A stretch of 64,000 nucleotides of DNA from positions 26,598,001 through 26,662,000 of the forward strand of contig NC_135667.1 of assembly GCF_964188315.1 (NCBI RefSeq), read 5' to 3'. The position numbers and the translations under genes were made by a program. This document shows positions 2,943-53,599 of the stretch, piece by piece. Source of the stretch: Podarcis muralis. Lineage: Eukaryota. The notes below the pieces were generated by a model. That model had not been told where the DNA came from and made no database searches. It worked only from the letters and a program-made list of their open reading frames with translations. Position 1 is the stretch's first letter, and every line of letters starts with the position of its first letter.

Positions 2943-3002
<60 letters not shown>

Positions 3003-7327: not shown

Positions 7328-7908
7328 AAGAAAATTCTCAGGTGTATGTGTGGAATGCATGTGTATTTTACTGTTTACATGTAAAAGTGTTCTATTAGAA
7401 TACCAAATGATAAAAGTTTCAAGCAAGAATCACTACGTCACATGGGATTTCACCTGATATACGTAGATTGAGTAGCAATATATGGAGGTACATACATCAC
7501 TTGGTTTCTTTTTCATTCATTTATAAATATTTCCATTATAACACTAAGATGCTTTAAAAATATTTCCTATAATATAATACTTAATATAATTAATATAATA
7601 TCTATCTATCATGTTCCAAGTTCTTTATTATTTTTTCTTAAAAATTGTAATAACATAATGAGGGTCAGTGTAACATTTGCTCCCAGCCTGTAATTCCCTT
7701 TTACAACTTTGAGAAACTTGTCTCCTGCTACTGCTATAAATCAGGGGGGCCCTTGTTCAGGAGAGAAGGAAGATAAACAACTGCCAAAGTACTTAGCCAG
7801 CTGGTTTCTGCCTGGCATGAAACATACAAACATTTGCAAATATATCTTTAAGGTCATTTTAAAATACAGGCCTTGATCAGATGCCTCAGTTCTAAATATA
7901 GTCGTACC

Positions 7909-17259: not shown

Positions 17260-17517
17260 CAGTGGTACCTCTGGATGCAAACAGGATCAGTTCCGGAGCC
17301 CCGTTCGCATCCTGAAGTGAACGCAATGCGTCCATGCATCTGCGCATGCGTGGGTCACGATCTGCTGCTTCTACGCATGCGTGTGATGTCATTTTGACCG
17401 TCTGCACATGCGTGAGCGGCAAAATCCGGAAGTAATGCACTCCATTACTTCCAGCTCACCGCAGCACGCAACCTGAAAATACTCATCCCAAAGCTACTTT
17501 AACCCGAGGTATGAAAG
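17260..17517. mobile_element. Tc1/mariner-type MITE
   Basis: TA-cagtggtacctc...gaggtatgaaag-TA. Confidence 0.75.
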
Positions 17518-17682
17518 TATTGACCACTTAGCTTTTGCTTAACGGTTGCCATCAATTTGATTTTAATTAATTTTTATAATGAAATATTTTTAGAATGTTG
17601 GATTATTTGATTGTTTGATTATTTGATTGTTGTTAGCCGCCCTGAGCCCGGCTTCGGCTGGAGAGGGCGGGATATAAATAAA

Positions 17683-17729
<47 letters not shown>

Positions 17730-18623
17730 GCTGTGGTTTACTTAGGTGTTCTACTGAGTCACAACAGGAAAAAGCTTGGTGTAATCTGTTGCCATGTGTT
17801 AAATGTGTTTACAGATGGCAGCTATGTGCTGCCACCTGGCAGTTTGAGTGTTGGGTCATGCTGCCACTACCACTACTGCATAGGGAGATAAACCTGTCTC
17901 TTTTTGCTCTTTTACTTCTGTTTTTGTTTGCCTCATCGTGTTGTTTGTTGCTTTCTAATTCGTGATAATTCACGAATTAAGAACAACATCAACAACCTCA
18001 GATATTTTCCCACAGGAGATACTATGCAGAATATGCTGCTCTGTAACATTTAGCAGGGAATGGAGCAAGGGGTTATGTGTAGGCAGCATGTTGGCATTAT
18101 AATGCTGTTCTTATTTATCTTTGTTGTCTGCAGCTCTTGGGACACACAATTGAAAGTTGAGTTCTTTCTTGGCAAAACACTCAATTGCATTAGCTCCTAA
18201 GGTGTGAGAATCACATGTGCCACCCCTGCTAAATAGCTAGATGGGCATCTCCTTCTTCACACCTGTGCTCCATCCCAGAAGTTGGAACAACGGCATGCCA
18301 TGCCCACATCTACTCCAGCACATTTAAACCCCCTCTTCTGGCGTGGTGCATGCAAGAGACTGGCAATTTCACTTGTGTGCATTTCCAGCTGATCCTCTCA
18401 GCCCGACTCTCTCTGGCACTGTGTCATCCACCTCTTGCCCTACCTCCGCTTCTCCTATCTCTAACTGCACAGCCTCTACCTCTTTCCCCTGCTTTGCAAG
18501 TTGCACAGACCCCCACAAATCACTGGTCCCTTCCCCTGAAAAGTCTCCTGAGCCTCTGCCACCTCTGCCCACCCTTCAGACTCTTGCCTTTCCCTCCTGT
18601 CCAACAATGAAGATAAAGGTAAA

Positions 18624-19011
18624 GGGATGCAGGTGGTGCTGTGGTCTAAACCATGGAGCCTCTTGAGCTTGCCAATTGGAAGGTCAGCGGTTCGAAACTG
18701 TGTGACGGGGTAACCCCCCTTTGCTCTGTCCCAGCTCCTGCCAACTTAGCAGTTCGAAAGCATACCAGTGCAAGTAGATAAATAGGTACTGCTGTGGCGG
18801 GAAGGTAAACAGTGTTTCAATGCGCTCTGGCACTCGCCATGGTATCCCATTGTTCCAGAAGCAGTTTAGCCATGCTGGCCACATGACCTGGAAAGCTGTC
18901 TGTGGACAAATGCTGGCTCCCTCGGCCTGAAAGTGAGATGAGCGCCGCAACTCTATAGTCACCTTTGACTGGACTTAACCATCATGGGGTCCTTGACCTT
19001 GACCTTTTACC
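18624..19011 (+). mobile_element. Sauria SINE (duplicate of 1238-1625)
   Basis: No difference seen from 1238-1625. Confidence 0.9.
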
Positions 19012-19600
19012 TCCAGCAATGACTCACCTGAATGGAGGTTATGTAAGCTTCTCCACTACACTGCACCATGTCATCTGCTACTGCTATTAAGAGTAGCAGT
19101 AAAAAGAGTAGCAGTAAAACTTTAAAAGTATCCCTGAATGGTCAAAACTAATCCCAAATTAATTTCCAAAAGCCTATACAGAAAACAGACAGCAAAACTA
19201 GGAGCCTGTGAAATTCATCAAGCAATATGCGTGTGTGTGTGAGCATGCACGCACACCCAAAGCAATAATGCAATATGATTACAAATAAGGAGTATTAAGG
19301 TTCCAAGATACAACAAAGACACTAGTGGGTTTCTGTGTGAGATAATGAGGGAGTCCGGTGCGCTTCTGCTGCCACTCAGCTTGCCAGACTTGTTGCAGAG
19401 TAAAACACAGTGTGTGCTCTGTGTGCAAGCATGCAGAAAAGAGAGTCTGTACTCAGCTTCTTCACTAATCTAATGAAGCTTTATTTGTACAGCAGCGATA
19501 AATCAACATCTCCAGGAGACGGCATAATTCCTCCCTTCTCCGTCAAAACCGAAACTAGGCTGAACACAAAGAACAGATTTCAAGATGAGGGAACCACACA

Positions 19601-19642
<42 letters not shown>

Positions 19643-20336
19643 AGTGGGCTTCACGCATACCCTGTGCCGTTTAACCCTATAAGCTGGGATTCTCCTCACA
19701 CTCTGCCCCTCCCTTTTGTTGTCCCTCAGACGGGAAAGGGAGCAAGGAAGATAGACATAATTTGGTGTTTTGCTAATTAAAGGAGGGCCTGGGGTGATTA
19801 GGAAGAGGAAAGAGAAAGACTCCAGCAAAGAGTTCCATTCTGAAGAGCTTAAAACATCAAACAGTGCAAGAAGGGTAGAAAGAGAGAATGGAAAGGAGGA
19901 AGGGAAATCCAGTGCAGGGCAATGTGTTTCTGTGGTAGGGAGTTAAAGAAGCAAGGGGAAGGATGGAGAAATGTTGCTAGTTCTCTGCAGAATTCAGAGA
20001 TTCTGGTATTGAAGGAATGGGTTGCCTCTAAAGTAAAAAAAACTGGACTTGGTGGGTGGTTTGTAGTTCATGTTCCCCAAAATGTTTGCAACTCTGTGAA
20101 TCCAGAAAGTCCACTTTGCATGGGGCCATCTCCACTAACTCAAATTAGTCTGAGGACAATCACATTCAGTCAATGAAGGAAGTGTTCTGCTTGCGGAAAT
20201 CTGCTGAATAGAGATTTATTAGGCCAATGTGGGCCCACATCTGCAAAGTCACACATACAATCAAGCTGAAAGCATAGTTATGACTTGCCATGGACCTGGC
20301 ACAATTCAGCAGAATCAACATAAATATATGTGTGAA

Positions 20337-20387
<51 letters not shown>

Positions 20388-20685
20388 TTATTTATACCCC
20401 GCCCTCCCCAGCCAAGGCCGGGCTCAGGGCGGCTAACAAGCAATAATAAAAACAAGTTGAATAACTAAAATGTTTCAACTCTGTTATAGAGCATAAAAAT
20501 GATAAGATCCATTGTTGAACCTATATAACAGTTTATGAATTGTTATAAATTAGCATGTGTGTTCTCCAATATCTGCGTCAGACATGAAAATAGTGATTTC
20601 AAAATCATTAGATTTTATCTTTATTATAAATGATTTAAAATATTTTCAATTGTTTTACTATTTTTGCGCAGAAAGAGAAACGTAA

Positions 20686-21645
20686 TCAATGCTGTAGACG
20701 TTGCAAATTGGGGAAGAATAGGGTGAATAGATTTGCCGTCATCTTCCACAATGCTGATTTCAGTTGCCTATTCCGTATACTATAGATTATTGGGTTCATA
20801 ACTGGAGGAAACATGCAATAGAACATAGAAAGCACAAGATCCATGACTGATGGGGACCCAGAAGTTGGCTTTAGATAGGCAAATGAACCACTGGCAAGAA
20901 ATAAGGATATTACAATAAGATGTGGCAAGCAAGTTGAGAAGGCTTTTTCCTTCCCCTGGGCAGAAGGAATTCTTAGAACTGCCCTGAAGATCTGAACATA
21001 AGAATAAACTATCAGAGCAACATAAGTAATGGCTAGAAATATACCAACACAAATAACCCGAAATGTGATGATATATGAATCAGAACAAGCAATTTTAAAT
21101 AACTGTGGGATTTCACAGAAGAACTGGTTGATTTCATTGGAACAGAACTCAAGTGTGAATGTGCTTCCAGTGTATATTGTAGAATACAGAAGCCCACCAA
21201 CCCATGCACAGATTGCCAGTTGGACGCATGTCTTTCTATTCATGATAGTCTCATAGTGCAGTGGACAGCAGATGGCAATGTAGCGGTCATATGCCATAAT
21301 ACCAAGGATGAACAAGTGAGATCCAATAAAAAGAATGAGAAAGAAAACCTGGCAGATGCATCCACTGTATGAAATAGTCTTGGTGTTCATCAGGGAATTT
21401 GACAAGGATTTGGGGACTGTGACAGATATTGAGCCAATGTCTTGGAATGCAAGATTGGCCAAAAAAAAGTACATGGGTTTGTGAAGCTGAGGACTGCAAG
21501 AGATGACTGTGATGATGAGAAGGTTTTCAATGAGAGCCAACAAATAAATAAGCAGAAAAGCAATGAAACGGAATGTCTCCATCTCCTGAGTATCAGAGAA
21601 TCCATGCAAAATGAATTCCATCAGTCCTGATGATTGGTTGAACAT
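20686..21645 (-). CDS. Olfactory receptor, OR14-like, gene B (319 aa), near-identical to A except TM5
   Basis: Intact OR motifs; acceptor AG at 21664-21665. Confidence 0.95.
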   Translation of the reverse strand: MFNQSSGLMEFILHGFSDTQEMETFRFIAFLLIYLLALIENLLIITVISCSPQLHKPMYFFLANLAFQDIGSISVTVPKSLSNSLMNTKTISYSGCICQVFFLILFIGSHLFILGIMAYDRYIAICCPLHYETIMNRKTCVQLAICAWVGGLLYSTIYTGSTFTLEFCSNEINQFFCEIPQLFKIACSDSYIITFRVICVGIFLAITYVALIVYSYVQIFRAVLRIPSAQGKEKAFSTCLPHLIVISLFLASGSFAYLKPTSGSPSVMDLVLSMFYCMFPPVMNPIIYSIRNRQLKSALWKMTANLFTLFFPNLQRLQH

Positions 21646-22525
21646 TGTGTAGGTATTTGGTACCTGCAAAGAGAAAACAAACCCATTTTAGAAAGGAGAA
21701 GAGTGTCAGAGGCTTTCATGCAGGTTCCCCATGTGATCAAATAGATTGACCTAGGTAAGCCAGAAACCATTGCTCTTTCAATAAACATTTGTTTGTTGTT
21801 CATCTTAAAATTAAAAAGTATACACCTTTAAAAATGTGAAATCTCTAGTATTACATATTATAAAAATATTTCATATTGTTCAATGTTTCGTATAGATTAT
21901 ATAAAGAGTTTATATTGATATTGCATTATTGTACTTGGTCATCGTGTTGCCTTGGATATTACTGATGACTGTTGGAAAGAAACAGAGGAACTGAGGTGAG
22001 AGGGAATAGAAGGCAGCTGCTGCTTCCCTGAGCAGAAACCCTCCACAAGCCATCTTGTTGCAGGACTTTACCTGCTGAATACAGTGCCCAAAACATTCAA
22101 ACATTATTCTCAAGACATTTAACTGAATCAGATTGTTTGTCTCAGGCTTCAGTGAGCGTTTCCTGCAACAACCATTCAGTAGAGATGGTCTAAGTTAACC
22201 AGTCTAACACTACAAAAGTGGCAACTAATCATTCTGTTTCTGCCACTGGAGCATTGTTCTACTTTGGTGCAGCTTCGAGTGCGGATGACATCTGAAATCA
22301 TTCCTCCCAGTATAATGCAGTTAGAAAATCTGCAACTCCACTAAGTGTCTTAAGGGGTGGAGCTCTTGATATGGTATATTGACCTCTAAGAGTGGTGCAT
22401 CAGTCCTGGCTGGGGTGCTGGTTTTGGGGGGAGGGAGGGTGCTTATGCTGAGTGGAAGCATGAAATTCTGACCTGAAAACCTGCTTGTTTAGTAGTACTG
22501 TCCTTTTCCACTGCCAGAAGTGTGT

Positions 22526-22574
<49 letters not shown>

Positions 22575-22718
22575 GCAGGCATTAATTCTCATCATAATCC
22601 AAAAGACCACGATGATCCCCATCATTCAATGATGCCTTTTCCCATGTCACGGGTTTCCAGCATGCACCAGCAAAGAGAATCTGCAGCTGACACATTCTCT
22701 TCAGTGCCTCATGCAAAT

Positions 22719-24248
22719 CACTGGGCAACAATTTTTTACTTTTTGAATGTTGTTTAGATTTCTACAACTGATTTAGGGTATTTTTGCACTGCTGAATCAG
22801 GAAGTGGCATCCGTTTCTCTCCATCAGGTCAGGTTTATTGTAAACGGAATGGTGGGCATTGATAAAGGTAAGTACACGTAAATTGCATGTTGCTTCACCA
22901 TTTTTCAAACTTCAGGGCTTGAACTTCCGTTTCTTGGAACTCCTGGGATGCTCAGCGGCAGGGAGGTCTCTCTTCAGAGTCCAACAGTAGTCAGCCATCA
23001 TGACTGCGTCCCAGAGACCCTGATACCTGGTCTCCATCTCTTTCATGTCCTGATGGAATCTCTCCCCCTGCTCGTCACTCATTGAACCCAGGTTCTCAGG
23101 AAACCGGTCCATATGTGAAAATAGGTAGTGCATCTTGACGCTCATGTTGCAGCCCAGGTTTCTGAAAGCAGTCAGCATGTTGTTGACAAGTTCTGCGTAG
23201 TTTCTGGCCTTATTGTTGCCAAGAAAGTTATTCACTACCAGAACAAATGCCTTCCACGCTTCCAGTTCCACTTCGTTCATTGAGTTTCCGAACTCTGGAT
23301 CTCTGATGAGCTGACGGATCTGAAGACCGTCAAAGATGCCACTTTCAACTTCTTCATGGTCAATCCTGGAAAAGCCTGGCACAAGTAAGTGAAGCAGTCA
23401 CCATCCTTGTCCAGAGCCTTGGTGAACTGCTTGATTAAGCCGAGCTTGATGTGCAGCGATGGGAAGAGTATTCTGTCTCTGTCCACCAGAGGGTCGTTGA
23501 TGATGTTCCTTTTTTTGCAAGGCACCAATTCCTCCCGCACAGGCCAGTCCTCCTTTGTGTAATGCTGAGCACGGTCCCTACTATCCCACATGCACAGAAA
23601 ACATGGGTACTTGGTGAAGCCAGACTGTTGTCCCAACAAAAAGTTCACCATCTTCAGGTCAACACAAATAAACCACTTATGCTGATCATAACCAATTTTC
23701 TCCAGCACATACTTCACCTCTTCATAGTTCTCCTTCAGTGTACTCGAGTGAGCCAGGGGTATAGAGGCAAACTGGTTGCCGTTGTGTAGCAGAACACATT
23801 TCAGTGATCGCTTGCTGCTATCAATGAACAGTCTCCAATCTTTGGGTTCGTACTGTGGCACTCCAAGCTTGAGCAGAAGCTGCACAATATCTGCACAGTA
23901 CACCAAGTCCTTCTCTTCCGAGAAAAAAAGGAGGTTTTATGACTTCAAACTGATCCCTTGTTGACATAATCACCCAGAACTATCGGACCTGAATACTTCT
24001 TGTCATTAAAATAATCATTTCCAATCAAAACAATTATTCGACATGGCATTTTACCCCCCACCAACTTCTTCTAAAATGCTCCACGCAAGCGTACATGTGA
24101 ACAAAAACGTTTAAAAAATGACATGTGGCCATAGCTCAAAAACTTGACCTGATTGAGCAAAACCAATGTGATTTTTGGATTCAGTGCATCAGATTCATCC
24201 TAAAAAAACTGAAAAAAATGCAGACAACAAATTTGTTGTTGCCCAGTG
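22719..24248 (-). mobile_element. Chapaev3/CMC-type DNA transposon (duplicate of 5351-6886)
   Basis: Perfect 13-bp TIRs cactgggcaacaa / ttgttgcccagtg; transposase fragments 23277-23906 and 22912-23382. Confidence 0.75.
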
Positions 24249-24412
24249 ATTGAAAATGTTAAACCAGATATTGGTAACATGTTAACTTCTCAGCACACCT
24301 GAACCTTAAAGTTTTGTCCAGAATTGCCCTCAGTGTAATTAACTTGTGATAAATTGGTTTTTTATCAAGTTGATACTCAATAAGCCACTTGAGAAGTGAT
24401 CCATAAAAACTG

Positions 24413-24430
24413 ACTCACCAAACTATTCAT
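24413..24430 (-). promoter_or_regulatory. Putative splice donor of the upstream exon of OR B (exon ends 24419), in-frame ATG at 24430
   Basis: Same block as 7051-7068. Confidence 0.7.
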
Positions 24431-24665
24431 GGGCAGATCCTGGATAATTTAATACAATTTTATGTGGTGGTATTTGTTGTTGTTGTTGTTGCTGCTGCTG
24501 CTTTATGTCTGCTCATTTTCTGCTTTTCTCTGATCACCCAGTATGATCTGTCACATCTTTAGCTCTCCATCACTGTTTAAGAGGTGATCTCGGTTACAGT
24601 TTTCCTCACTGACTAACAGAATAAGGAGATGCAGCAATTACTTTTATTTATATTTTGTTTCTCCA

Positions 24666-24689
24666 TTCCCAGGAGTCTAATAAACTCAG
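24666..24689. promoter_or_regulatory. O/E-like plus homeodomain motif, putative OR B promoter
   Basis: ttcccaggagtctaataaactcag. Confidence 0.6.
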
Positions 24690-25192
24690 AAGAAAATTCT
24701 CAGGCGTATGTGTGGAATGCATGTGTATTTTACTGTTTACATGTAAAAGTGTTCTATTAGAATACCAAATGATAAAGGTTTCAAGCAAGAATCACTACGT
24801 CACATGGGATTTCACCTGATATACGTAGATTGAGCAGCAATATATGGAGGTACATACATCACTTGGTTTCTTTTTCATTCATTTATAAATATTTCCATTA
24901 TAACACTAAGATGCTTTAAAAATATTTCCTATAATATAATACTCAATATAATTAATATAATATCTATCTATCATGTTCCAAGTTCTTTATTTTTTATTTT
25001 TCTTAAAAATTGTAATAACATAACAGCTATTGCTGATTCTTTTAATTTCAACTATTGTATAAAGAAGAGGACTGCTGGAAAATGTCTGTGAATGTTTTTT
25101 AAAATATGTTTGCTTCAAGAATCTCTCAGTAGAATAGGCCGCTGGATAATTTGTATACAGAATCAGCAAATAAGATACACAACATATAGACA

Positions 25193-33616: not shown

Positions 33617-34060
33617 TCATGGAACTTTGGAGTGTCAGGCATAGCCCTACTGGCTTTAGCCCAAACGTAGCAGAGTTTTCCTGCACAGCAAGGAAGCTAG
33701 TTGCGGCAGTAATGACAAGTCAGCTAGACTCAGAATAACTATTTACAGGATTTATTAAAAGGAGAAAATAAAACCAGCAGAGTTTCTGCATACAAATCAA
33801 AGCAAAATAAATCCTCTCTTTCTCTCTCTCTCAAAACCATACACAGCACTTCTACTCCTAACAACACCTCACTTCAAACTGAGCTAGCAATCCCTTGATA
33901 ACAGAGCAGAGTGCTGGTTGTTAACCAATCAGAGTAAGTAGTTTCTAGGTCAAGCAGACCTAGGCTTTCTGCCAAGAGTAAATTGACACCAGCCTGAGTT
34001 AATTGTGAGAAGCTAGAATCTGCAAGTTTCCCACGAGAACCAATTAACAGAAACTGAACA
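33617..34060 (-). repeat. Copia 3' LTR
   Basis: 444 bp, about 2 mismatches to the 5' LTR; purine tract gaggggg (34061-34067) precedes it on the minus strand. Confidence 0.95.
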
Positions 34061-34113
34061 CCCCCTCACAGATTCTGCTGAACAATTAACACCAAATACA
34101 CCTATGTAGGAGA

Positions 34114-35169
34114 TCATTTTTCCAGCAAACCTAAACCCTTGCACATTCGCTTGTTCTTTATCTTTGCCAATGGTTTAGTTAATACATCTGCTACATTTTC
34201 TTCACTTGATACATAAGTACAGGTGATTACATTGTCTTGTACACAGCAACGTACATTTTGGTATTTTACAGAGATATGTTTGGAACGCGATTTGAAACCC
34301 TCTGTTTTACTTAATGTTATACAAGCTTGATTATCAATGTAAACTTGTACTGGTTCTCCACAATTTACATTTAAATCTGTTAACAAATGCTTGAAATAAA
34401 TCACCTCGTTGCACAATTCACTCAATGCGGCGTACTCTGATTCCGTTGATGACACACTTACAACGTCTTGCTTGCGTGACCGCCAGCTGATTAAAGCTCC
34501 ACCGACCATTATGACTAGTCCTGTGACAGATTTTCTATCCGGCAAATTTCCCCAGTCACTATCACAGTAGCAACTCAACATTTCATCCTCTGAAGAATTT
34601 AATTGTAACATATAGCCAATTGTCTGTTTGAGATATCTCAGAACTTGTTTTACCCCTTTCCAGGCATTTAGTGTGGGTTTTGAGACCAATCTACTTAATA
34701 TGCCTACTGCATAACTAATATCAGGTCTGGACCACTGTGCTAGATACAATAAACTTCCAATTACAGAGTGATATACATCAGGATGTTCAAATTCAGGACT
34801 CTCATCTATATGAAGTGTTTTTATGAAACCTGGATCCATAGGCACCACTGCCCCTTTGCAATCCTGCATCCTGTATGTAGTCAGTAGTTGTTTAACTTTG
34901 TTCTGCTGACTAATTAGGCAGCTGCCATCTTGGGCCCAGCACACTTCCAACCCTAGATATGTCCTAACCGGGCCTAAGTCTTTCACTTTGAACTTACTGG
35001 ACAATTGTTTGGCAAACCTTTTAGTTTGTTTATCTGTTTTGCATGCATACAAAACATCATCTACATAAATCAGACAAAACTCTTGATCACTGCCTGTACC
35101 ACGTACATAAACACAATTGTCAGCTGTACTCTGCTTGAAACCAAATGACACTAAGGCCTCATGGAAACA
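34114..35169 (-). CDS. pol: Copia polyprotein C-terminal part (RT YVDD and RNase H), 351 aa
   Basis: CLIYVDDVL, SRPDISYAVG, CDSDW, STESEY, ADVLTKPL; continues the 38968-41874 frame across the ERV. Confidence 0.93.
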   Translation of the reverse strand, partial: CFHEALVSFGFKQSTADNCVYVRGTGSDQEFCLIYVDDVLYACKTDKQTKRFAKQLSSKFKVKDLGPVRTYLGLEVCWAQDGSCLISQQNKVKQLLTTYRMQDCKGAVVPMDPGFIKTLHIDESPEFEHPDVYHSVIGSLLYLAQWSRPDISYAVGILSRLVSKPTLNAWKGVKQVLRYLKQTIGYMLQLNSSEDEMLSCYCDSDWGNLPDRKSVTGLVIMVGGALISWRSRKQDVVSVSSTESEYAALSELCNEVIYFKHLLTDLNVNCGEPVQVYIDNQACITLSKTEGFKSRSKHISVKYQNVRCCVQDNVITCTYVSSEENVADVLTKPLAKIKNKRMCKGLGLLEK

Positions 35170-35540
35170 TTTGTTTGTGGGAGTCATAAAGCCATGGTAA
35201 AGGCTTGCAATATTGCAGGGTGCCCCCTGACCTCGGCTGACCAGCACTCTGAGCTTTACAATGCATTGGAATGCATTGACCTTATAAGGAGTTATGTTCT
35301 CTCCCCCTCTGGGCAGTGTAACCCTATATCGTTTGTGGGTGGGTTAAAGCTTGACCGGATGAGGTAACGTGAGACATTGGAATGCAGCCATGCGGCTGGA
35401 CAGAACAAAGGATAATAAAAAGTGATCGGAGGAGAGGAGAAGTCTCAATGAGCTCTCTCTCTTATTATGGAATATTACTCGCTCTCTATGTCTTTATTTT
35501 ATATTAAAGAAGTGCCACTTGTAACGGCTGGCCCGACAAG

Positions 35541-35557
35541 TGGTGCCCCGTGTGAGG
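35541..35557 (+). promoter_or_regulatory. ERV primer binding site complementary to the elongator tRNA-Met 3' end
   Basis: tggtgccccgtgtgagg is the reverse complement of ...CCTCACACGGGGCACCA (vertebrate tRNA-Met(e), from recall). Confidence 0.85.
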
Positions 35558-35783
35558 CTGAATAAAAGAATACGACTGAGGTTTTTAAAAGAGAGCTAAG
35601 AAGCGATTTAAAGCAAACAGTCTGAGGCAGACTAAGAGAAACTGTGAGAGGATTTTCGATCCAAGCAGTGAATATCATCGGCTCACTACGTCCGGCAAGG
35701 ATTGCAAAGCGCTTTACATCTTTAAAAAAAGATCCCGGTGAGTCCGATCCCTTTTCTCCTTCTTTTATATTGATTTTAGAGAC

Positions 35784-36677
35784 ATGGGCAGCTCTTTGAC
35801 TTCTCCGCAACAGAAATTTTTAAAAGACTTAAAATTTCTCCTCTCCTCCAACAAATTGGAAGTTCCTGATGGTGATGTGATACAGCTCATTCTGGCTATT
35901 GATGAACATTGTCCCTGTTTCCCTGTGAATGGAACATGGGAAATAAAACATTGGGATATGATTGGGACTCATTTTCATGGGCTCCCCAGCAGTAGTGCTC
36001 GGATTTTAAATGCTTGGTGTAAAATTCGATATGCTATGGGTTCTTTATCACCAAAAAATATCTCCATGGCTGCATTGCCAACACAACCTCCAGCTTCTTT
36101 AATTCAGCCTGCTGTGCTGGCATCTGTTCCAATACTGGCTTTGCCTGCAGCCCCAGATCCCAAACCTCCAGACTACAGTTCCTCACCAGAGGACCCAATC
36201 CTGCAAAAATACAGTGGTCTGGCTGGGAATGACCCTGCTCTTTCAGCAGCACAACCAGCTACCCCTTTTCAACGTGCAGTCCTTGCCTGTTCCTTATCTC
36301 AGGATACCATGGCATTCCCTGGTGCTCCAGCAGGAACTCAAGCCCAGCACCAACCTTTTGACTTTAAAATCTTGAAAGAGCTGCAATTGTCAGTAAGGAC
36401 AAATGGACTGCAAGCTCCATTTAAACAAGCAAGAGGGAATAATCCTAATCTTACCCTCGCAGATGTGATGGATGCTATGATGGGGCATGGCCCCCTTGCT
36501 CAGGCTTCAGTACAAGCCACACTGCTGCAGATCTTATTGAGGGATACTGCTCTTGCTGCTCAACAAGCAATGAGAAAAATCCCGGAACCCACCAGTATCC
36601 AGTCTAGGTGGGGTTCAATCAGACAAGAACGGTGGCCTCCTCCAAAAGAAAAATCCGCAGCACCAGCTTGTTTCTGA
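35784..36677 (+). CDS. gag: Truncated Gag (MA, PPxY late domain, partial CA) fused to the start of RT, 297 aa
   Basis: MGSSLTS myristoylation-type start; IDEHCPCFP..GTW...W beta-type MA; PPDY; PFDFKILKEL; ends IRQ-ERWPPPKEK (RT QWPLxxEK-like). Confidence 0.85.
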   Translation: MGSSLTSPQQKFLKDLKFLLSSNKLEVPDGDVIQLILAIDEHCPCFPVNGTWEIKHWDMIGTHFHGLPSSSARILNAWCKIRYAMGSLSPKNISMAALPTQPPASLIQPAVLASVPILALPAAPDPKPPDYSSSPEDPILQKYSGLAGNDPALSAAQPATPFQRAVLACSLSQDTMAFPGAPAGTQAQHQPFDFKILKELQLSVRTNGLQAPFKQARGNNPNLTLADVMDAMMGHGPLAQASVQATLLQILLRDTALAAQQAMRKIPEPTSIQSRWGSIRQERWPPPKEKSAAPACF

Positions 36678-36703
36678 ACAGCTTATTTCTGAACAATTGA
36701 CTT

Positions 36704-37720
36704 TTGGCCACATTGAACCGTCTTCATCCCACTTCTGACACCAGCAGACAGGAACGGTTTGCTTTTATATTGCCAGTATTCTCAACCCACCAGCGATATC
36801 AGTGGATTGTCCTGCCTCACAGCATGTGGAACTCCCCTACACTTTGTCAGCATTTTATGGATGAAGCATCGAAACCTTTCCGCATGCACCACCTAGAGGT
36901 GCTGAACAACAGCTGCATCTGACAGTATTTGCTACACCATTGTTGCCAACAGGAATTTTATATGCTCAGACATTGTGATCAAAGGACATTCACGTGCTAT
37001 AGCTTTGAGCAGTTTTGATATTGCATCAATTTATTTGCCTTTTTCACAGACTGAACAGCAACATTTATTGATCACAAATGCTGCCGTGCAAATTGCTTTG
37101 GCAGATTTTATAGGTGTCATCATTTTTAACCCTCCAAAGGATGACCGTTTGACATTTCTGATGCAGGTCACCTATGTCTTGGCTATCCCCTTGTCTCTCA
37201 CACCTCTCCCCTCTGCACTGACCCTTTTCACGGATGGAACAAGGAGTAGGGGGGTGGTGACATGGGAGGAGGGAGGAAAATGGAAATGTTATTTACCCCT
37301 CCACAGTCTTCTGCCCAGCTTGCCTTTCAATCCTTTCCTACTCAACCTTTCAATCTTATTGTGGATATGACTCAGTATGTATATCGCCTTTTTGCTATTT
37401 TACCAGTATCTTATATAACTCCTTCCTTGGATTCTGACTTGTTTTCCTTGTTTCTTGCCCTGCAAGCTTTACTTCAGCACAGAGAGTTCCCTTATTATGT
37501 TGCACATCTTCGCTCCCACACATCGCACCCAGGGTATTTAGCAGAAGGCAATGCACAAGCAGATGCAGCATTGAGGGACATTTCTGCCTTTTCTCTCTTT
37601 TCTGATCCTATACTATGTCATAACACCCTTCATCTCCCTGCGAAAGCATTGGCTAAGCAGTTTTCTATTCCTTTGGCCCAAGCTAGGGATATTGTGTCCC
37701 AAGGTGCTTCTTGTTCCCAA
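36704..37720 (+). pseudogene. pol: Fragmented pol (RT, tether, RNase H, integrase zinc finger)
   Basis: RFAF..RYQWIVLPHSMWNSPTLCQ; LFTDG; HLRSHT..GNAQAD; H-x3-H..LAQARDIV..; no YMDD motif and no integrase core. Confidence 0.85.
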
Positions 37721-37735
37721 GGATGGCGTGCGGCC

Positions 37736-38563
37736 ATGGCGAGCATCTTCAACCGCAGAAGCGCCTTCCTAACCATTTGCCTTGCCATCCTTTCCTGCAC
37801 CGTTATACAAGGAAGAGAAGCAGATGATCCAGTCCAGTTGAAACCACCATATTTCACCTTATCAGCTGGCAAGCCGCTGTCATCAGAATCCTACTCTGGC
37901 TGGCAGCATCCACGGCTCAGCCACTCTCGAACTAGAAGAACAGTGTTGTTGAATAAGACTTTTAGGGGAGAAAATTATCATAAGATATGGAGGGATAATA
38001 TTTTTGTACAAGATATGATTAAGTTTACTAGTTTATTGCATGCTTCTAAATGTTGGTTATGTATGCACATGCCGCCCTTTGCCAGTCATTCAGGCATAAT
38101 GCTTCATGGTGTGCCTGTCAATGGATCTTTTCGATTTACAAATAGCATATCCCCTAAGCAAACCTTTTGGCCTCCAGTACAATTGACCCTCCATGAGCCT
38201 GCTCCCATTTGTTTTCAAATTAAAGAGGGGAAAGAATCATGGGGCATATATCCAAACTGTCAATATACATTGAAATTCATGTTTAATAGCTCTTGTTCTC
38301 TTACAGCGATACCAGTGCATGGTTATAAACCAGAAAGGAAGCCTACCATGCAGCTTGGAATCAGAATTCTTATATTCTTGGCTTCCGGATGGAAGTTGGC
38401 TTCGACATTTATTGATTATAGTGATTATTATAGTAGTTATTTGCATTATTTTGTGTTGCTATATACAATGTATTCCTTCTTTAATTTCTGTATGTACTGC
38501 ATGGTTCTCCAGTCCGCGGCCCGCTTCCGGTCTCACAAGAGTCGCCTATCAAGCTCGACATAA
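37736..38563 (+). CDS. env: Env-derived ORF (signal peptide plus SU N-terminal part), 275 aa
   Basis: gccATGG start; hydrophobic leader FLTICLAILSCTVIQG; RTRR; CWLC; sequons NKT, NGS, NSS; native TM anchor (SWLP..WLRHLLIIVIIIVVICIILCC) lies in another frame (38319-38585). Confidence 0.65.
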   Translation: MASIFNRRSAFLTICLAILSCTVIQGREADDPVQLKPPYFTLSAGKPLSSESYSGWQHPRLSHSRTRRTVLLNKTFRGENYHKIWRDNIFVQDMIKFTSLLHASKCWLCMHMPPFASHSGIMLHGVPVNGSFRFTNSISPKQTFWPPVQLTLHEPAPICFQIKEGKESWGIYPNCQYTLKFMFNSSCSLTAIPVHGYKPERKPTMQLGIRILIFLASGWKLASTFIDYSDYYSSYLHYFVLLYTMYSFFNFCMYCMVLQSAARFRSHKSRLSSST

Positions 38564-38967
38564 CCATATATATGGCTCTGATTAAAATATAAAGAAAGAG
38601 GGCATGTGGGAGTCATAAAGCCATGGTAAAGGCTTGCAATATTGCAGGGTGCCCCCTGACCTCGGCTGACCAGCACTCTGAGCTTTACAATGCATTGGAA
38701 TGCATTGACCTTATAAGGAGTTATGTTCTCTCCCCCTCTGGGCAGTGTAACCCTATATCGTTTGTGGGTGGGTTAAAGCTTGACCGGATGAGGTAACGTG
38801 AGACATTGGAATGCAGCCATGCGGCTGGACAGAACAAAGGATAATAAAAAGTGATCGGAGGAGAGGAGAAGTCTCAATGAGCTCTCTCTCTTATTATGGA
38901 ATATTACTCGCTCTCTATGTCTTTATTTTATATTAAAGAAGTGCCACTTGTAACGGCTGGCCCGACA

Positions 38968-41874
38968 TTTGTTCCAAGATCTTGCAGCCTGTTTGAGACC
39001 GTATAGAGCTTTGTTTAATTTCAACACTCTATTGGAACCTGTCTCATAACCAGGCGGTTCGGCAAGATACAGGTCTTCTGATATTGACGCATGTAAATAT
39101 GCAGTCTGAATGTCAAAATGGTTTAACAGGAGTTTTCTCTTTGCTCCAAGAGTTAAAATCAGCCTTACACTGTCCCCCTTGGCAGTAGGGGAAAAAGTCT
39201 CGTCATAATCTTTTCCAGGCCTCTGAGAGTATCCTTGAGCGACTAAACGAGCTTTGTATTTGTACTCTCCTGTCACCAGAGGTTTAAGTTTGTATACCCA
39301 CCTGCAGCCTACAATCTTTGCCCCCTCAGGCGCTGCTACTGGTGTAAAAACCTTGTGCTCATTCAGAGAGGACATCTCTTCCTCCATTGCCTGTTTCCAG
39401 CGCTCTGCCTCCTCTTTTGGTAACTTTAACACCTCCTGAAAACTCTTGGGTTCTGCAATCACACTAAACACATTTGCAGTATCTGGAGAAAAACGCACCG
39501 GAGGCACTCCTTTGTTTTGTCTTTTAGATCTTCTGGGAGAAAATTTTTCTTCTGACCCACTTTCCTCCTCAGAACTACGACCTCTCTTTTGTTGCTTAGC
39601 AACTGGTCTTTGGCTAACTCCACTTTCTTGAGAGCTCTTATCTGAACTTTCCTCCCCCTCAGACTCTGATTCTCTATGTTTACCTTCAGAGTCATGAAGC
39701 TCCTGGGAAGGTTCAAACCAAACCTCAGTATTGGCATGTAGTCTCTCCCAGCCACTATGTTCACAAAAACTGGCATTCCTGGAGATCACAATGCCATTTG
39801 TCCCTTCAGCAAAGCGGAAACCTTTTCCCAGCTCCTGGTAACCCACAAACACTAACTGTTTGGTCTTAGGATCTCCCTTCTTCCTCATTTGTTTTGGAAT
39901 TAATACCCAGGCTTTTGATCCAAACACATGCAAATGGTCAATTTTGGGTTTTTTCTGAAACAATTTAAAGTACGGGGTTGTACCTATAGTTTGATGAAAG
40001 AGCCTGTTTTGGAGATAACACGCGGTGAGCATGCTCTCCCCCCAATAAGACATGGGCAAATCAGCATCGTCAAGCATGGCAAACATCATATCTTGTAAAG
40101 ATCTGTTTTTTCGCTCTGCAACGCCATTCTCCTCTGGGGAAAAAACGTTCGTTTTCCTATGCCCAATGCCACGCTTTTGTAACCAATCTTTAAAGGCATT
40201 TGACATAAATTCGCCACCTCTGTCCGTCTGAATCCTTTTAAGTTTAATGGACAGAAATCTTTCCACAGATGCCACCCAGCCTTTAAACTTAGTGAACACG
40301 TCACCCTTATTCTTCATGGGAAAAACCCAAGAATAACGTGTGGCGTCATCCACAATTGTTAGTGAAAAGCGCGATCCACCCCTGCTTACAGCAAATGGAC
40401 CAATTACGTCCATGTGAACCAGCTGTAGCGGTGACTCACTAACTCTGTCACTTCTGGGGTAAGAGACTCTGTGGGTTTTAACCTTTTTACACACATTACA
40501 ATCAAGGTACTTGTTACAACTCTTTAAATTACCCCCATCAGCCAATTCAGACATTTTTAGTACACTTTTCCAGCAAGCATGCCCCATTTTCCTATGCAAT
40601 AAGTGCACACAGTTGTCATGTATAGCTTTGTTATTCACTGCAGGCTGAGATTTACTGACTACTGCTGCAACTTGAGATCCTGCTTTAAGCCAAAACAAGC
40701 CTCCCTCTGACTTAGCAGTGCCTAAAATCTCACCAGCCTTCTTAATAATGCAACTGTCTCCTTCAAAATGCACTTTAAACCCAGCTTTTAGCAAACAATC
40801 TACAGACATCAGATTGCTCCTTAATGAAGGCACACAAAGTACATTTTGCAGGCATTCACGAAGACAAGGAACAAAAACTGCACCCCCCGAAATCACTTCG
40901 GAAGTACTTCCGTCTGCTAGAGCCACCTGGCTGCGCTGTGCTGAGTTCTTGGAAACAAACAATTCATCTGAATTTACGATGTGGCGAGATGCTCCTGAAT
41001 CGACCACCCAGACCGCTTGTTTCTCATCAGCACTCTTGACCTCGCCGGTCACCAGCTGAGCCGACTGTTTTTGTTTGAAGAATTTCTTTTTACGCTGCTG
41101 CTGCTGCTGATCTCGTCTCTGCTCCTGCACCGGCAACTGAGACTTGACCAACTCCGGACATTGTCGTTTTAGATGCGCTGAAGACCCACATCGGAAACAA
41201 CGCCTAACAGCAAACGCTGACTCCTCACTGGTACGCTGCTTTTGCGTCACCTCTGGCACGGCATGAAAACTCCTTCCAAACCGCCCGCCTGTAGAAGCCT
41301 CTGCAGCCAACGACCTTTCTTGCCTCTTCTGCCATTCTTCAATCAAACGCCCAGTAACGTAACTGACTGATAAATCATGCTCCTGCATGCCTTCTAGAGA
41401 CAAAACTAAATTATCCCAGCTTTCCGGGAGAGAACTCAAAATAATAGCCACCTTCTCCTGCTGGTCTAACGCACAGTCTCTTTCCTGTAGCGCAACAAAC
41501 TTTAACTGTAAACTGTGTAGGTGTTCCTGCATTGTAACCCCAGGCTGTAACATTGCCTTGTACAATGCCTTGCGAATGAACAGCTTGGAAACCGCTGTCT
41601 CACGCACATGGAGTTCTTTAAGTGCTTGCCACACACCTCTAGCTGTCTTGATTCCCCTCACATACGGCAACTGGGAATCTTCCAGCCCCAAGACAATTGT
41701 GGCCCTTGCTCTTTGGTCTTTATCGAGGTCTTCATCATCAGGCTTCGCAGGAAACTTACTCACCACTTGCCAGAGATGATCCCTCTGCAGCACTGCCTGC
41801 ATGCGTTCCGACCACAGCAAGTAATTGGAGTCATTCAGACGCTCAAAAGCCATCTGAACTGGTTGTGAGGCCAT
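38968..41874 (-). CDS. gag-pol: Copia polyprotein N-terminal part (Gag, zinc knuckle, protease, integrase, start of RT), 969 aa
   Basis: CFRCGSSAHLKRQC; VVDSGAS; HRKMGH..C..C; VHMDVIGP, QTDRGGEF, NGVAERKNR; KARLVAQG; YGLKQAARSWNK. Confidence 0.95.
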
Positions 41875-42120
41875 CTTGAGAGCGATGTCCCTGGAACCCG
41901 GAACCAGCTACTCACGACCACCGAGAGAGAAAACAGGAACCACAGCACCCAGCACTCACACGCTGCAGCTGTTGTCCTTGTGCCCGCTGCGTCACCAGCT
42001 CACCACAGTCAGGAACCAGCCAGTGTCCATCTGCTGCACCAACAGGAACAACAACTTCTGGAACTACTGGAACCAACGCCGTTGATGCTGACACCACCGC
42101 AACTCAGGCTGGCAGCACAA

Positions 42121-42131
42121 TGCCCATAACC
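42121..42131 (-). promoter_or_regulatory. Copia PBS complementary to the anticodon stem-loop of initiator tRNA-Met
   Basis: ggttatgggc directly abuts the 5' LTR and matches the Drosophila copia-type PBS GGTTATGGGCCCA. Confidence 0.8.
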
Positions 42132-42575
42132 TCATGGAACTTTGGAGTGTCAGGCATAGCCCTACTGGCTTTAGCCCAAACGTAGCAGAGTTTTCCTGCA
42201 CAGCGAGGAAGCTAGTTGCGGCAGTAATGACAAGTCAGCTAGACTCAGAATAACTATTTACAGGATTTATTAAAAGGAGAAAATAAAACCAGCAGAGTTT
42301 CTGCATACAAATCAAAGCAAAATAAATCCTCTCTTTCTCTCTCTCTCAAAACCATACACAGCACTTCTACTCCTAACAACACCTCACTTCAAACTGAGCT
42401 AGCAATCCCTTGATAACAGAGCAGAGTGCTGGTTGTTAACCAATCAGAGTAAGTAGTTTCTAGGTCAAGCAGACCTGGGCTTTCTGCCAAGAGTAAATTG
42501 ACACCAGCCTGAGTTAATTGTGAGAAGCTAGAATCTGCAAGTTTCCCACGAGAACCAATTAACAGAAACTGAACA
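42132..42575 (-). repeat. Copia 5' LTR
   Basis: 444 bp, TGTTCAG...CCATGA in element orientation. Confidence 0.95.
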
Positions 42576-43715: not shown

Positions 43716-44672
43716 TCAATGAACCCTTATACAGTTAGCGCATTTGTTGGCTGTTCTCCTTAAGGCCTCCTTCACTTCTTTATTCCTCAGGCTGTATATA
43801 AGGGGATTAAGCAGAGGTGTCAAGATGGTATAAAAGATAGAGAATACCTTATTGAGTGTTCTCAGTTGATTGTTGTCTTGTAAAAGATACACAATGGTGA
43901 GAGAGCCATAGAAAATGGTCACCACAATGAGATGGGAAGAGCAAGTGGAGAAAGCCTTTTGCCTTCCTGTGGTGGATGGGATGCCAAGAATGGCAGTGAT
44001 GATGCATACGTATGATGCTATAGTCAGAACGAATGGTGGCAGGGTAGAGATAGAAGTCAGAACAGCCGATACCAGTTTCACCTGACTTGCATCACTGCAG
44101 GCCAGGTTCATCATCGGAATGAAATCACAAAAGAAATGCTCAATCACATTGTGGCCACAGAAGGTTACCTGTAGTATAAAACCTAACAATATTGTATCTA
44201 TGACAAAACTGCCAATCCAAGACCCAGCTACCAGCTGGAGGCAAACCTTGAAATTCATAAGGACAGAATAATGCAAGGGGCGGCATATTGCTATGTAACG
44301 GTCATAAGACATTGCTGCCAGGAGATAGCACTCAGTTACTGCTAAGAACACAAATGCCCATAATTGCACAATGCAGCCATTAACGGATACACCTGGGTTT
44401 TTGCTTAATAAACTGGCCAGCATTCTGGGGAGGATGGTTGAGCTATAGCAGGTCTCCAGGCAAGACAAGTTGCCCAGGAAGAAATACATGGGGGTGTGGA
44501 GGTGCTGATCAGTCACAACCAATGTGACAATGATCAGGTTCCCAGCCATAGTCATGATGTAGATGATTAGAAACAGCACGAAGAGAAGAATATGTAACTC
44601 CTGGAGTTCTCCAAAGCCACGAAGGACAAATTCTGTAATGATGGTTTCATTTCTCCTCTCCAATGTCAACAT
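43716..44672 (-). CDS. Olfactory receptor, family 11/6-like, gene E (318 aa from ATG)
   Basis: NET sequon, LHTPMYFFLGNLS, MSYDRYIAIC, KAFSTCSSHL, PLLNPLIYSLRN; acceptor ccccttcagcag lies upstream. Confidence 0.95.
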   Translation of the reverse strand: MLTLERRNETIITEFVLRGFGELQELHILLFVLFLIIYIMTMAGNLIIVTLVVTDQHLHTPMYFFLGNLSCLETCYSSTILPRMLASLLSKNPGVSVNGCIVQLWAFVFLAVTECYLLAAMSYDRYIAICRPLHYSVLMNFKVCLQLVAGSWIGSFVIDTILLGFILQVTFCGHNVIEHFFCDFIPMMNLACSDASQVKLVSAVLTSISTLPPFVLTIASYVCIITAILGIPSTTGRQKAFSTCSSHLIVVTIFYGSLTIVYLLQDNNQLRTLNKVFSIFYTILTPLLNPLIYSLRNKEVKEALRRTANKCANCIRVH

Positions 44673-47178: not shown

Positions 47179-48141
47179 TTAATAAACTCTTATATGTGCA
47201 TATTTGTAAGCTACTTTCCTCAAGGCCTCCTTCACCTCTTTGTTCCTCAGACTATATATTAGAGGATTAAGGAGAGGTGTCAATATTGTGTAAAAGACAG
47301 AGAAGACTTTGTTCAGCTCTCTCAGTTGGTTGGTGTCTGGCAAAATGTACACAGCGATGATGGTGCCATAGAAAATGGTCACCACAATGAGATGAGAAGA
47401 GCAGGTAGAGAAGGCCTTTTGTCTTCCTGTGGAGGACGGGATGCCAAGAATGGCATTAATGATGCACCCATAGGATGCTATTGTTATACTGAATGGTGGC
47501 AGTGTGCAGATGGAGGTCAGAGCAAATGACAGAACTTTTATTTGATGTGTGTCACTGCAGGCAACATTCACTATTGGAAGGAAATCACAAGAGAAATGAT
47601 CAATAACACTGTAGCCACAGAAGGTTAACTGCAGTGTAAAAATTAACAAGATCATGTTTACCACAAAACTGCCGATCCAAGAACCAGCCACCAGCTGGAG
47701 GCAGATTTTGAAATTCATAAGAAATGGATAATGCAAGGGCCTGCATATTGCGACATAGCGATCGTAGGACATTGCTGTCAGGAGGTAGCACTCTGCTGCT
47801 ATCAAGAAACCAAAAACCCACAATTGCACAATGCACCCATTCACCGAAACACTTTGGTTCTTGGTTAAGAAACTGGCCAGCATTCTAGGGAGGATGGTTG
47901 AACTGTAGCAGGTCTCCAAGCAAGACAGATTCCCAAGGAAGAAATACATGGGTGTGTGTAAGCTTTGATCAAGCACAACTAGTACAACAATGAGGATGTT
48001 CCCAACCATGGTCATAACGTATATAATTAGAAACAGCATGAATAGAAAAATCTGGAGTTCCTGGATGTCTCCAAAACCAAGAAGGATGAATTCTGCTATG
48101 TTGGTTTCATTTCTCTCCTCCTCTTTCTTAATGGTTTTCAT
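47179..48141 (-). CDS. Olfactory receptor, family 11/6-like, gene F (320 aa)
   Basis: Intact OR motifs; ATG directly after ctattccaccag. Confidence 0.95.
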   Translation of the reverse strand: MKTIKKEEERNETNIAEFILLGFGDIQELQIFLFMLFLIIYVMTMVGNILIVVLVVLDQSLHTPMYFFLGNLSCLETCYSSTILPRMLASFLTKNQSVSVNGCIVQLWVFGFLIAAECYLLTAMSYDRYVAICRPLHYPFLMNFKICLQLVAGSWIGSFVVNMILLIFTLQLTFCGYSVIDHFSCDFLPIVNVACSDTHQIKVLSFALTSICTLPPFSITIASYGCIINAILGIPSSTGRQKAFSTCSSHLIVVTIFYGTIIAVYILPDTNQLRELNKVFSVFYTILTPLLNPLIYSLRNKEVKEALRKVAYKYAHIRVY

Positions 48142-52237: not shown

Positions 52238-53224
52238 TCACCTTATGCAACATCTAAAGATTTGAAGGCCAGAGTTGAATGCACATTTGCACATATGGCT
52301 GCCTGCTCTCCTCAAGGCTTCCTTCACCTCCTTGTTCCTCAGGCTGTATATGAGGGGATTGACTAGAGGTGTCAAAATAGTGTAAAAAACAGAGAATAAT
52401 TTGTTCAGCTCTTTCAGTTCATTGGTATCTGGCAAAACATATACAATGATGAGAGTGCCATAGAAAATGGTCACCACAATGAGGTGAGAAGAGCAAGTAG
52501 AGAAGGCCTTTTGCCTCCCTGTGGTGGATGGAATTTGAAGAATGGCTGCAATGATGTACATGTATGATGCTAAGGTCAGAATGAATGGTGGCAGGGTAGC
52601 TATTGAAGTCAGAACAGTCGATATGAGTTTAACCCGCCGTGTGTCACTGCAGGCCAGATTAATCAATGGAGTGAAATCACAAAAGAAATGTTGAATGACA
52701 TTGTGGCCACAGAATGTTAGCTGCAATACAAATATAAATACTGTTGTGTCCATCACAAAGCTGCTCATCCAAGATCCAACCACCAGCAGGAGGCAAACCT
52801 TTGCATTCATATGTGTGGAATAATGCAGTGGGCGACATATTGCCAAGCAGCGATCATAAGACATTGCTGCCAGGAGATAGCATTCTGTTCCTGCTAAAAC
52901 CCCAAAAGTCCAGAATTGGACCAAGCAGCTATGAATAGACACACTATCATTATGTGTTAATAAACTGGCCAGCATTCTGGGGAGGATGGTTGAGCTGTAA
53001 CAGGTCTCTAAGCAAGACAAATTCCCAAGGAAGAAATACATGGGTGTGTGTAAGTGCCGATCAGTCACAACTAGTCCAACAATGATCAAGTTCCCAACCA
53101 TGGTCATGATGTAGATCATGAGAAAAACAATGAAGAGAAGAATTTGTAGGTCATGGAAGTCTCCAAAGCCACGAAGGATGAATTCTGTAATGATGGTCTC
53201 ATTACGCCCAGCAGGTTTTTGCAT
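52238..53224 (-). CDS. Olfactory receptor, family 11/6-like, gene G (328 aa from ATG), DRY changed to DRC
   Basis: Intact frame and OR motifs; MSYDRCLAIC. Confidence 0.92.
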   Translation of the reverse strand: MQKPAGRNETIITEFILRGFGDFHDLQILLFIVFLMIYIMTMVGNLIIVGLVVTDRHLHTPMYFFLGNLSCLETCYSSTILPRMLASLLTHNDSVSIHSCLVQFWTFGVLAGTECYLLAAMSYDRCLAICRPLHYSTHMNAKVCLLLVVGSWMSSFVMDTTVFIFVLQLTFCGHNVIQHFFCDFTPLINLACSDTRRVKLISTVLTSIATLPPFILTLASYMYIIAAILQIPSTTGRQKAFSTCSSHLIVVTIFYGTLIIVYVLPDTNELKELNKLFSVFYTILTPLVNPLIYSLRNKEVKEALRRAGSHMCKCAFNSGLQIFRCCIR

Positions 53225-53599
53225 CTTTTTCAGTTGAAGGGGGGAATGGAATTTGTCCAATCAACAATAAAAAAAATTATCGCTTAAAGAAAGAAAGGAA
53301 AAAATAGGGAGGTAGTCAAGAGGAAGGAAGAATACAGTATATTTTATATTTTGCAATTTCTTAATTTAAAAGCAGAGCTTAAAATCATGAAAGTATCCTT
53401 ATAAGAGTATATAAAACAATGTAGGGGACTCAAGCACATAGAACTGTGTATAATCTTATGCATCAGGGAAAACCAGAGCATCGTGATACAGTAAGTCTTT
53501 ACAAGATATCTGAAGCAACTGATAGCTACTGCTTTACATATGGCACATAGTACAAGGGCAAGAGCAGAAAATGTCAATTTTTTTGTCTCTACCCTATAA

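Follow-up and report, generated by a model that had tools for sequence, protein, structure and literature searches.

The element in the window and its primer

The stretch of DNA analysed here, referred to as the window, comprises 64,000 nucleotides of the lizard Podarcis muralis (assembly GCF_964188315.1, contig NC_135667.1, positions 26,598,001 to 26,662,000). Inside a Ty1/copia element it harbours an endogenous retrovirus (ERV), which entered the germline recently and belongs to a multi-copy family of non-autonomous class II ERVs, here termed family A (Table 1). The two long terminal repeats (LTRs) of the element are identical at 363 of 363 positions, enclose an interior of 3066 bp and are flanked by a 6-bp target site duplication (TSD), in agreement with a preliminary description of the locus. 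The same description had reported an interior of 3.07 kb devoid of nucleocapsid (NC), protease, YMDD motif and integrase core. Pfam searches and the deletion map presented below indeed reveal no NC, protease, YxDD or integrase core in the element, and the earlier picture needs correction only in that remnants of pol and env are still present. Pfam identifies Gag_p10, part of Gag_p24 and Integrase_Zn in the interior and, below the curated cut-off, a piece of the reverse transcriptase (RT) palm, while alignment to longer copies shows that pieces of the RT connection, of RNase H, of the env signal peptide and surface subunit (SU), and of the tail of the transmembrane subunit (TM) are kept as well.

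Table 1. Features of the family A element and its host element; positions are counted from the first nucleotide of the window. PBS, primer binding site; ORF, open reading frame.
Feature	Positions	Strand	Remarks
Left TSD, TTTGTT	35170..35175	+	
5' LTR, 363 bp, TG...CA	35176..35538	+	AATAAA at 35414, ATTAAA at 35503
PBS for tRNA-Met(CAT)	35541..35558	+	18/18 including CCA complement; 19-nt match
5' leader with splice donor and presumed packaging region	35559..35783	+	
Truncated gag ORF, 297 amino acids	35784..36677	+	Frame under selection
RT palm remnant (RVT_1 89-145), YxDD segment deleted	36701..36922	+	Pfam, deletion map
RT connection remnant, thumb deleted	36906..37370	+	Alignment to longer copies
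RNase H and integrase zinc-finger remnant	37250..37720	+	Integrase core deleted at ~37716-37724
env remnant: signal peptide and part of SU	37736..38384	+	531-bp internal deletion
env TM tail after 633-bp deletion	38385..38585	+	
Polypurine tract (PPT)	38589..38604	+	Last 10 nt common to lineage B
3' LTR	38605..38967	+	Same as 5' LTR
Right TSD, TTTGTT	38968..38973	+	
Ty1/copia element hosting the ERV	33617..42575	-	ERV sits inside copia RT

The truncated gag ORF opens with a myristoylation-type start (MGSSLT), continues through matrix (Gag_p10), a PPDY late-domain motif (36165-36176) and an N-terminal remnant of capsid, and is joined at ~36625 to a short RT-derived tail. The splice donor of the leader (G/GTGAGT, 35737/35738) is found in 35 of 36 short copies of the family.

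The PBS begins 2 nt past the 5' LTR. A pattern search of the genome finds the matching tRNA end at three sites, two of which are tRNA-Met(CAT) genes according to ARAGORN (L098 and L099). With CCA added, both host genes match the window over 19 nt, covering the full 18-nt PBS and exceeding the 17 nt reported before. ARAGORN reports only Met(CAT), and we presume the tRNA to be the elongator; an initiator-Met pattern had no match in the genome, a result that says little in itself. Given the 19-nt match and a copy of tRNA-Met at locus L053, another tRNA is unlikely to serve as primer, the comparison covering part of the host tRNA set. At L053/L097 (G000:C4, ~26.84 Mb) the sequence after an LTR of the type of lineage B (see below) consists of 50 nt copied from the 3' end of tRNA-Met, with CCA, and then gives way to unrelated sequence. 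Because tRNA genes do not encode the CCA present in this copy, it reads as a fossil of aberrant read-through of a reverse transcriptase into its primer. Across the genome, the 17-nt PBS pattern has 64 matches (reversed control, 0) and a looser 15-nt pattern has 113 (control, 3), so that Met priming, correctly proposed for this element, is common in the host genome.

The ERV interrupts the RT of a young copia element, whose 444-bp LTRs (33617-34060 and 42132-42575) differ at 2 positions and are flanked by the TSD ATTCA; since the two halves of the copia ORF on either side are in register, the ERV is the younger of the two insertions. The copia LTRs end in TG...GA instead of TG...CA, with a 5-bp TSD, and the copia PBS lies directly 3' of the LTR and resembles the half-tRNA initiator-Met priming of Drosophila copia.

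Inherited deletions and the gag stub of family A

The assembly was searched as 1.52 Gb in ~20 large contigs plus the 30-Mb contig C20. Inspection of 58 of the 64 PBS matches assigned 51 loci to family A and seven to other Met-primed families. Loci L054, L058, L060, L061 and L078 represent a further Met-primed family of class II-like proviruses, which are older, have decayed and differ in their U5 ends. For the deletion map, 44 rows representing 43 loci (L119 re-fetches L050; L063 was skipped as too long) were aligned with the natural copy L043 as ruler. Protease and the start of RT are missing in 44 of 44 rows, through a 1218-bp deletion in 30 and an 893-bp deletion in 14. Equally absent from every row are a segment of ~145 bp containing YxDD and a 531-bp env segment (in one row within a larger deletion), while a 427-bp thumb deletion and the loss of a 633-bp env segment are each found in 43. 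The integrase core has been lost through deletions of ~653 bp (27 rows), ~1609 bp (12) or 1674 bp (1) and is kept in four rows. The junctions agree to the base in most rows; microhomology at them amounts to 0-5 nt and follows no pattern. About eight deletions, ~3.9 kb altogether, are stacked in this way, and the family forms a series from near full length (7.6 kb) down to 2.8-3.9 kb. The 1218- and 893-bp deletions occur with the 653- and 1609-bp deletions in all four combinations (window copy, L016, L077 and L048), and optional deletions of 150 and 132 bp are likewise present in all combinations, which requires that defective genomes recombine with each other, i.e., that they are co-packaged. 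The window element lost protease, the RT active site, the thumb, the integrase core and the greater part of env long ago, one inherited deletion after another. The cis signals that reverse transcription and integration depend on are all still there, namely the LTR tips, the Met-type PBS and the PPT.

Decay of one provirus after insertion, or a spread of copies by segmental duplication or L1 activity, is hardly credible as an explanation of these data. Some loci are duplicates (L048 and L049 share a TSD, and an L071-type array occupies contigs C20 and C35), but junctions common to up to 44 of 44 rows, the distribution over many contigs, individual 6-bp TSDs and complete near-identical LTRs refute it for the window copy and for the dispersed copies. 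The deletions are therefore not private to the window copy, and the further copies with the same deletions for which the preliminary description had suggested a search do exist. The array consists of ~13 duplicated intermediate copies (G000:C20 0.9-4.3 Mb, and C35) in which capsid is still present and the RNase H-integrase frame open. Most class II pol matches lie on C20, which is crowded with class II proviruses like a W-chromosome refuge and may be the W chromosome.

Interiors of family A copies differ by ~4-14%, while the LTRs are near identical within each copy. Among short two-LTR copies 26 of 30 have at most one LTR mismatch, and pooled divergence is 3/8913 (0.03%), equivalent to ~84 thousand years (17-246 thousand) at an assumed rate of 2e-9 substitutions/site/year; at the same rate the window copy is younger than ~2.5 million years. 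A 6-bp TSD was detected in 32 of 39 rows, the seven misses including LTR ends mis-called by the script. Recent mobilisation and non-autonomy, both claimed from the single copy, are confirmed. Copies ending in GACA like those of lineage B are younger than the others (27 versus 9 copies, p=2e-4); convergence of the U5 tip was not used as support, as it concerns one base only and is confounded with subfamily succession.

The gag frame has had a different history from the rest of the interior. In 32 of 36 short copies (L119 and L049 being left out as redundant) the window-type frame ends at the same stop, at many different lengths, and a PPxY motif is present in 28 of the 36. Within family A, indels are in frame in 17 of 20 cases in gag versus 11 of 46 in the pol/env remnants (p=5.5e-6); for indels common to at least two copies the values are 10 of 10 and 6 of 20 (p=3e-4), and a tally that splits clustered indels points in the same direction (25/53 versus 20/94 in frame, p=0.0015). 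The shared ratio of nonsynonymous to synonymous polymorphism (pN/pS) is lower in gag (0.26) than in pol/env (0.51; p=0.011). The gag reading frame is clearly under selection and the protein sequence less clearly so. A predicted RNA fold of the leader was not significant (z -1.47). The preliminary description had seen in the element a streamlined parasite mobilised in trans; non-autonomous it is, but a bare passenger made of cis signals it is not, given that the truncated gag frame is selectively kept open.

RNA reads from three runs (X21, X23 and X24) and contigs of a further one (X12) were mapped at 86% likeness to the broken long copy L044. The runs, of ~2 Gb each, contributed 272, 327 and 1053 mapped reads, and reads span deletion joints with skips of 132, 150, 204, 430, 662 and 1601 bp, most of them in X21 and the 430-bp skip in all three. 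Five X21 reads connect the donor of the leader with an acceptor inside the RNase H region, the skipped stretch having GT-AG ends; the equivalent site of the window element lies at ~37465 in the RNase H/integrase remnant, where its sequence differs from that of L044. Deleted family A forms are transcribed at a low level, the reads not being assignable to the window copy. At L044 3179-3636 (env TM), X23 and X24 reach a depth of 9-12 with reads of opposite orientation to most others and many differences from L044.

Relationships of family A and the candidate helper

Named top matches of Pol are reptile, bird, SRV and HERV-K-like proteins, the nearest one being from a turtle (53%) and further ones from cobra, tortoise and monitor lizard. 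The best PDB match, 7sr6 (E 9e-134), which we take to be HERV-K RT, scores far above HIV RT. Long copies of family A and of lineage B encode Gag_p10/p24, two CCHC fingers, RVT_thumb and IN_DBD_C, with gag, pro and pol in three successive frames. Judged by domains, three-frame layout and homologues, family A classifies as a class II ERV (alpha/beta-related); a 6-bp TSD is typical of such ERVs without being defining. At an E-value limit of 0.01, the pro ORFs of L043, L044, L083 and L084 contain no match to a dUTPase family, and env of both A and B matches TLV_coat and carries CxxC/CX6CC, i.e., is of gamma type. In the Pol tree, A and B fall into a 17-row clade (SH-aLRT 99) that is separate from SRV1, SRV4 and prosimian RV1 and whose named members come from turtle, cobra and tortoise; the tree was built by a quick method with no class I/III outgroup and with MMTV, JSRV and HML rows absent, and several of its rows are cut to the last 480 amino acids and have long branches. 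Betaretroviruses are typically primed by tRNA-Lys, and family A uses Met(CAT) instead. This carries little weight by itself, since HML-5 also uses tRNA-Met and primer use often converges and is unsuitable for taxonomy, as stated in PMC6114882. We therefore retain the earlier assignment to class II and drop that to the betaretroviruses proper: the missing dUTPase match, the gamma-type env and the placement in a reptilian clade characterise a reptile class II lineage.

Searches with protease/RT DNA, RT-thumb DNA, the B protease protein, PF06817 and PF00552, in which the best candidates were scored, detected no intact family A provirus. Four A loci bear protease and three have the YxDD-thumb stretch, and none has open gag, pro and pol: L043 and L044 contain stops or frameshifts in gag and pol, L100 retains little of pol, L051 is truncated, and L045 has no protease. 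In contrast, in lineage B, all four frames are open in L083 and L084, namely gag, pro, pol (903 amino acids, YMDD) and env; these two loci show no LTR mismatches, are flanked by 6-bp TSDs and carry a PBS with a 15-nt Met match. Besides these two, the sole stop-free frame of ~900 amino acids among RVT_thumb and IN_DBD_C matches is that of L088 from another family, termed C. The protease search returned five B loci, then the four A loci at 36-50% and then other families, mostly at 28-36%. A and B are sisters in the Pol tree (SH-aLRT 97) with a DNA identity of ~65%; the sequence they have in common covers 7 nt at the tip of U3, 5 nt at that of U5 and 10 nt of the PPT.

Lineage B is itself active, with a pooled LTR divergence of 3/5823 in 16 copies and a 6-bp TSD in 16 of 16 two-LTR copies. 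Its young defectives of 3.7-4.3 kb (L086, L102-L115) exhibit two alternative deletion sets, an open truncated gag and patches identical to L083; the LTR search gave 41 matches from 40 of 133 candidates scored. Truncated gag is open in 14 of 14 short B copies examined, with 371-484 amino acids reached via different deletions. Runs of at least 200 nt identical to L083 occur in 8 of 15 short copies, the longest extending over 1535 nt, which shows that a near-identical B genome works as helper for its own derivatives.

The preliminary description had deduced an active full-length helper and proposed a search for proviruses with intact pol. Met-primed proviruses with four open frames do exist, though in sister lineage B and not in family A, whose long copies are all broken. 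On circumstantial grounds, and at odds slightly better than even, lineage B is the likeliest helper of family A: no class II provirus outside it was found to have four open frames in this assembly, and it uses the same primer, has matching LTR tips and PPT and is active at the same time. As the best explanation of the whole, to which we assign a probability of about 0.6, family A would be mobilised in trans, with B as its likeliest helper and with a gag stub acting in cis. An intact class II provirus would build the particles that take up family A RNA and would also provide for tRNA-Met priming, reverse transcription and integration. The short myristoylated protein of family A, consisting of matrix, PPxY and capsid remnant, would help its own RNA in cis when translated, by bringing it to the assembly site or by protecting it from decay, in analogy to the intracisternal A particle (IAP) 1Δ1 of the mouse.

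Family C (L088, L094, L096, L121-L129) has LTRs of 600-650 bp, some with a TA start, a PBS presumably of Trp type, and young gag-pro derivatives of ~4 kb. L088 encodes an open pol of 901 amino acids and a protease with stops, and gag and pro are open in L094/L096; the three loci have common flanks and look like duplicates of one insertion. With these frames and its young derivatives, family C might supply the helper, its long copies on C20 maybe complementing each other, or an unsurveyed class I ERV might do so, as cross-class mobilisation exists in the case of VL30 by murine leukaemia virus. Such a source is improbable, considering that family C differs in primer and LTR tips (TGAAGG or TAAAGG ... 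CTACA) and is much further from A in the tree, with a protease ~35% identical to that of B.

An intact family A provirus or exogenous A virus, segregating in the host and absent from the assembly, would correspond to the situation of competent and defective copies in cattle. We consider it unlikely, while giving it serious weight. Long A copies exist and are 77-98% identical to the short ones in shared segments, and homologous helpers are the rule in IAP and in cattle (PMC6466679, PMC10924933). Family C offers a parallel: its long copies examined are without four full frames and it has young short copies nonetheless, so that the absence of an intact copy of the own family does not force a foreign helper. 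Contigs of X12 cover the A protease region, which old broken copies explain too. On the other hand, the long A copies are older, with LTRs 1-2% apart where measurable (mismatches of 5/598 in L043 and 7/316 in L045, 98% identity in L100), and all are broken. None of the young short A copies has regained protease, YxDD, thumb or the 531- or 633-bp env segment; unbroken identity with a protease-bearing A copy extends over at most 185 nt (38 rows), compared with the 1535 nt seen in lineage B. Moreover, RNA of the A protease region is nearly absent in all three runs, with a depth of 0-1.4 and one bin at 0 throughout.

Several observations weigh against mobilisation by B and against the gag stub as a functional protein. 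Patches recombinant between A and B are absent: the window element aligns with L083 only in patches of 65-79% identity, apart from matches of 22-30 nt at PBS and PPT. A missing B patch is expected at this divergence, yet there is no direct sign of co-packaging. The Gag matrix regions of A and B are only 39% identical and their proteases 46-50%, and TSD length does not point to B, as family C also makes 6-bp TSDs. One assembly probably amounts to one haplotype, so that a polymorphic intact A provirus could be missed, and the parallel of family C applies here too. Within gag, constraint on the matrix region alone does not exceed that on the pol/env remnants (p=0.45), and the RT connection likewise has a low shared pN/pS (0.14), so that part of the signal goes back to an ancestor that was functional; what is selected may be translation and not the protein itself. 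Finally, RNA depth is low and orientation mixed.

Apart from the ERV and its host element, the window contains a direct duplication of 7.6 kb (1-7658 and 17399-25023; 97.9% identical, 17.4 kb apart), which is either a segmental duplication or a large recent element. A unit of ~900 bp is present in four copies ~80% identical (43742-44655, 47202-48115, 52296-53229 and 59719-60652), which may be exons of a tandem gene family or belong to an old repeat.

Implications and comparison with known systems

Mouse, cattle and koala have supplied most of the known ERV systems that comprise a helper and a parasite and are mobile today. The reptile studied here adds such a system, with tens of insertions at the pooled divergence given above, and family A is a likely source of new mutations and polymorphic markers in its host. 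Natural evidence from two lineages indicates selection on defective class II genomes for continued translation of a gag stub. Tentatively, and with the odds somewhat against it, one may go further and propose that family A, its own autonomous members being extinct, spreads by parasitising a sister lineage ~35% diverged, and that the defectives of A and B have converged on an open-gag design of 3-4 kb. If so, shared LTR tips, PPT and a tRNA-Met primer would suffice for parasitising a sister lineage, the cis effect of translation in IAP 1Δ1 would be a general rule, and defective ERVs could outlive their own helper by switching to another.

In IAP 1Δ1, a deletion-made gag-pol fusion is reported to aid retrotransposition in cis while Gag and Pol are needed in trans, and 1Δ1 elements dominate new insertions (PMC6466679, PMC7411935). 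Like family A, IAP 1Δ1 is a class II ERV with a gag-pol deletion and a truncated frame kept open; for family A, a cis effect of this frame is suggested by the selection signal. IAP 1Δ1 has one 1.9-kb deletion and a helper of its own family, whereas in family A numerous deletions are stacked, the ORF ends just past the gag/RT junction, several deletion sets occur side by side and recombine, and no intact candidates are available but the diverged sister proviruses. The mouse pair ETn/MusD is alike in that a non-autonomous class II element is mobilised by a coding relative (PMC6466679), but ETn is non-coding and has LTR sequence in common with MusD, while A and B have only LTR tips, PBS and PPT in common. 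HERV-K(HML-5) is a class II ERV with tRNA-Met as well (PMC6114882), in contrast to family A an ancient and inactive primate group. The Python molurus ERV (PyERV) also combines a reptile class II gag-pol with a gamma-type env (PMC3758190); our tree contains no PyERV row.

In cattle, defective copies of ERVK[2-1-LTR] outnumber competent ones, which are polymorphic, recombine with them by co-packaging and may extinguish them (PMC10924933). Family A resembles these defectives in its many recent independent insertions despite the lack of enzymes, in shared deletions and in recombination. The cattle defectives have no intact ORFs and recombine with competent copies, whereas family A has a selected gag frame and no patches from intact genomes. 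By analogy, family A may represent the stage after loss of the own helper that is predicted by the cattle simulations, and the system bears on whether defectives kill their own helper, as in the cattle model, or survive by changing it. Our literature search found no account of family A or of an active class II helper/parasite pair in a lizard; an entry in a repeat library may exist. The kind of system is known from mouse and cattle. What is new is that this one is young and comes from a reptile, that it preserves a full deletion series with recombination, that both sister lineages show selection for an open gag stub, and that family A may really have survived the loss of its own helper.

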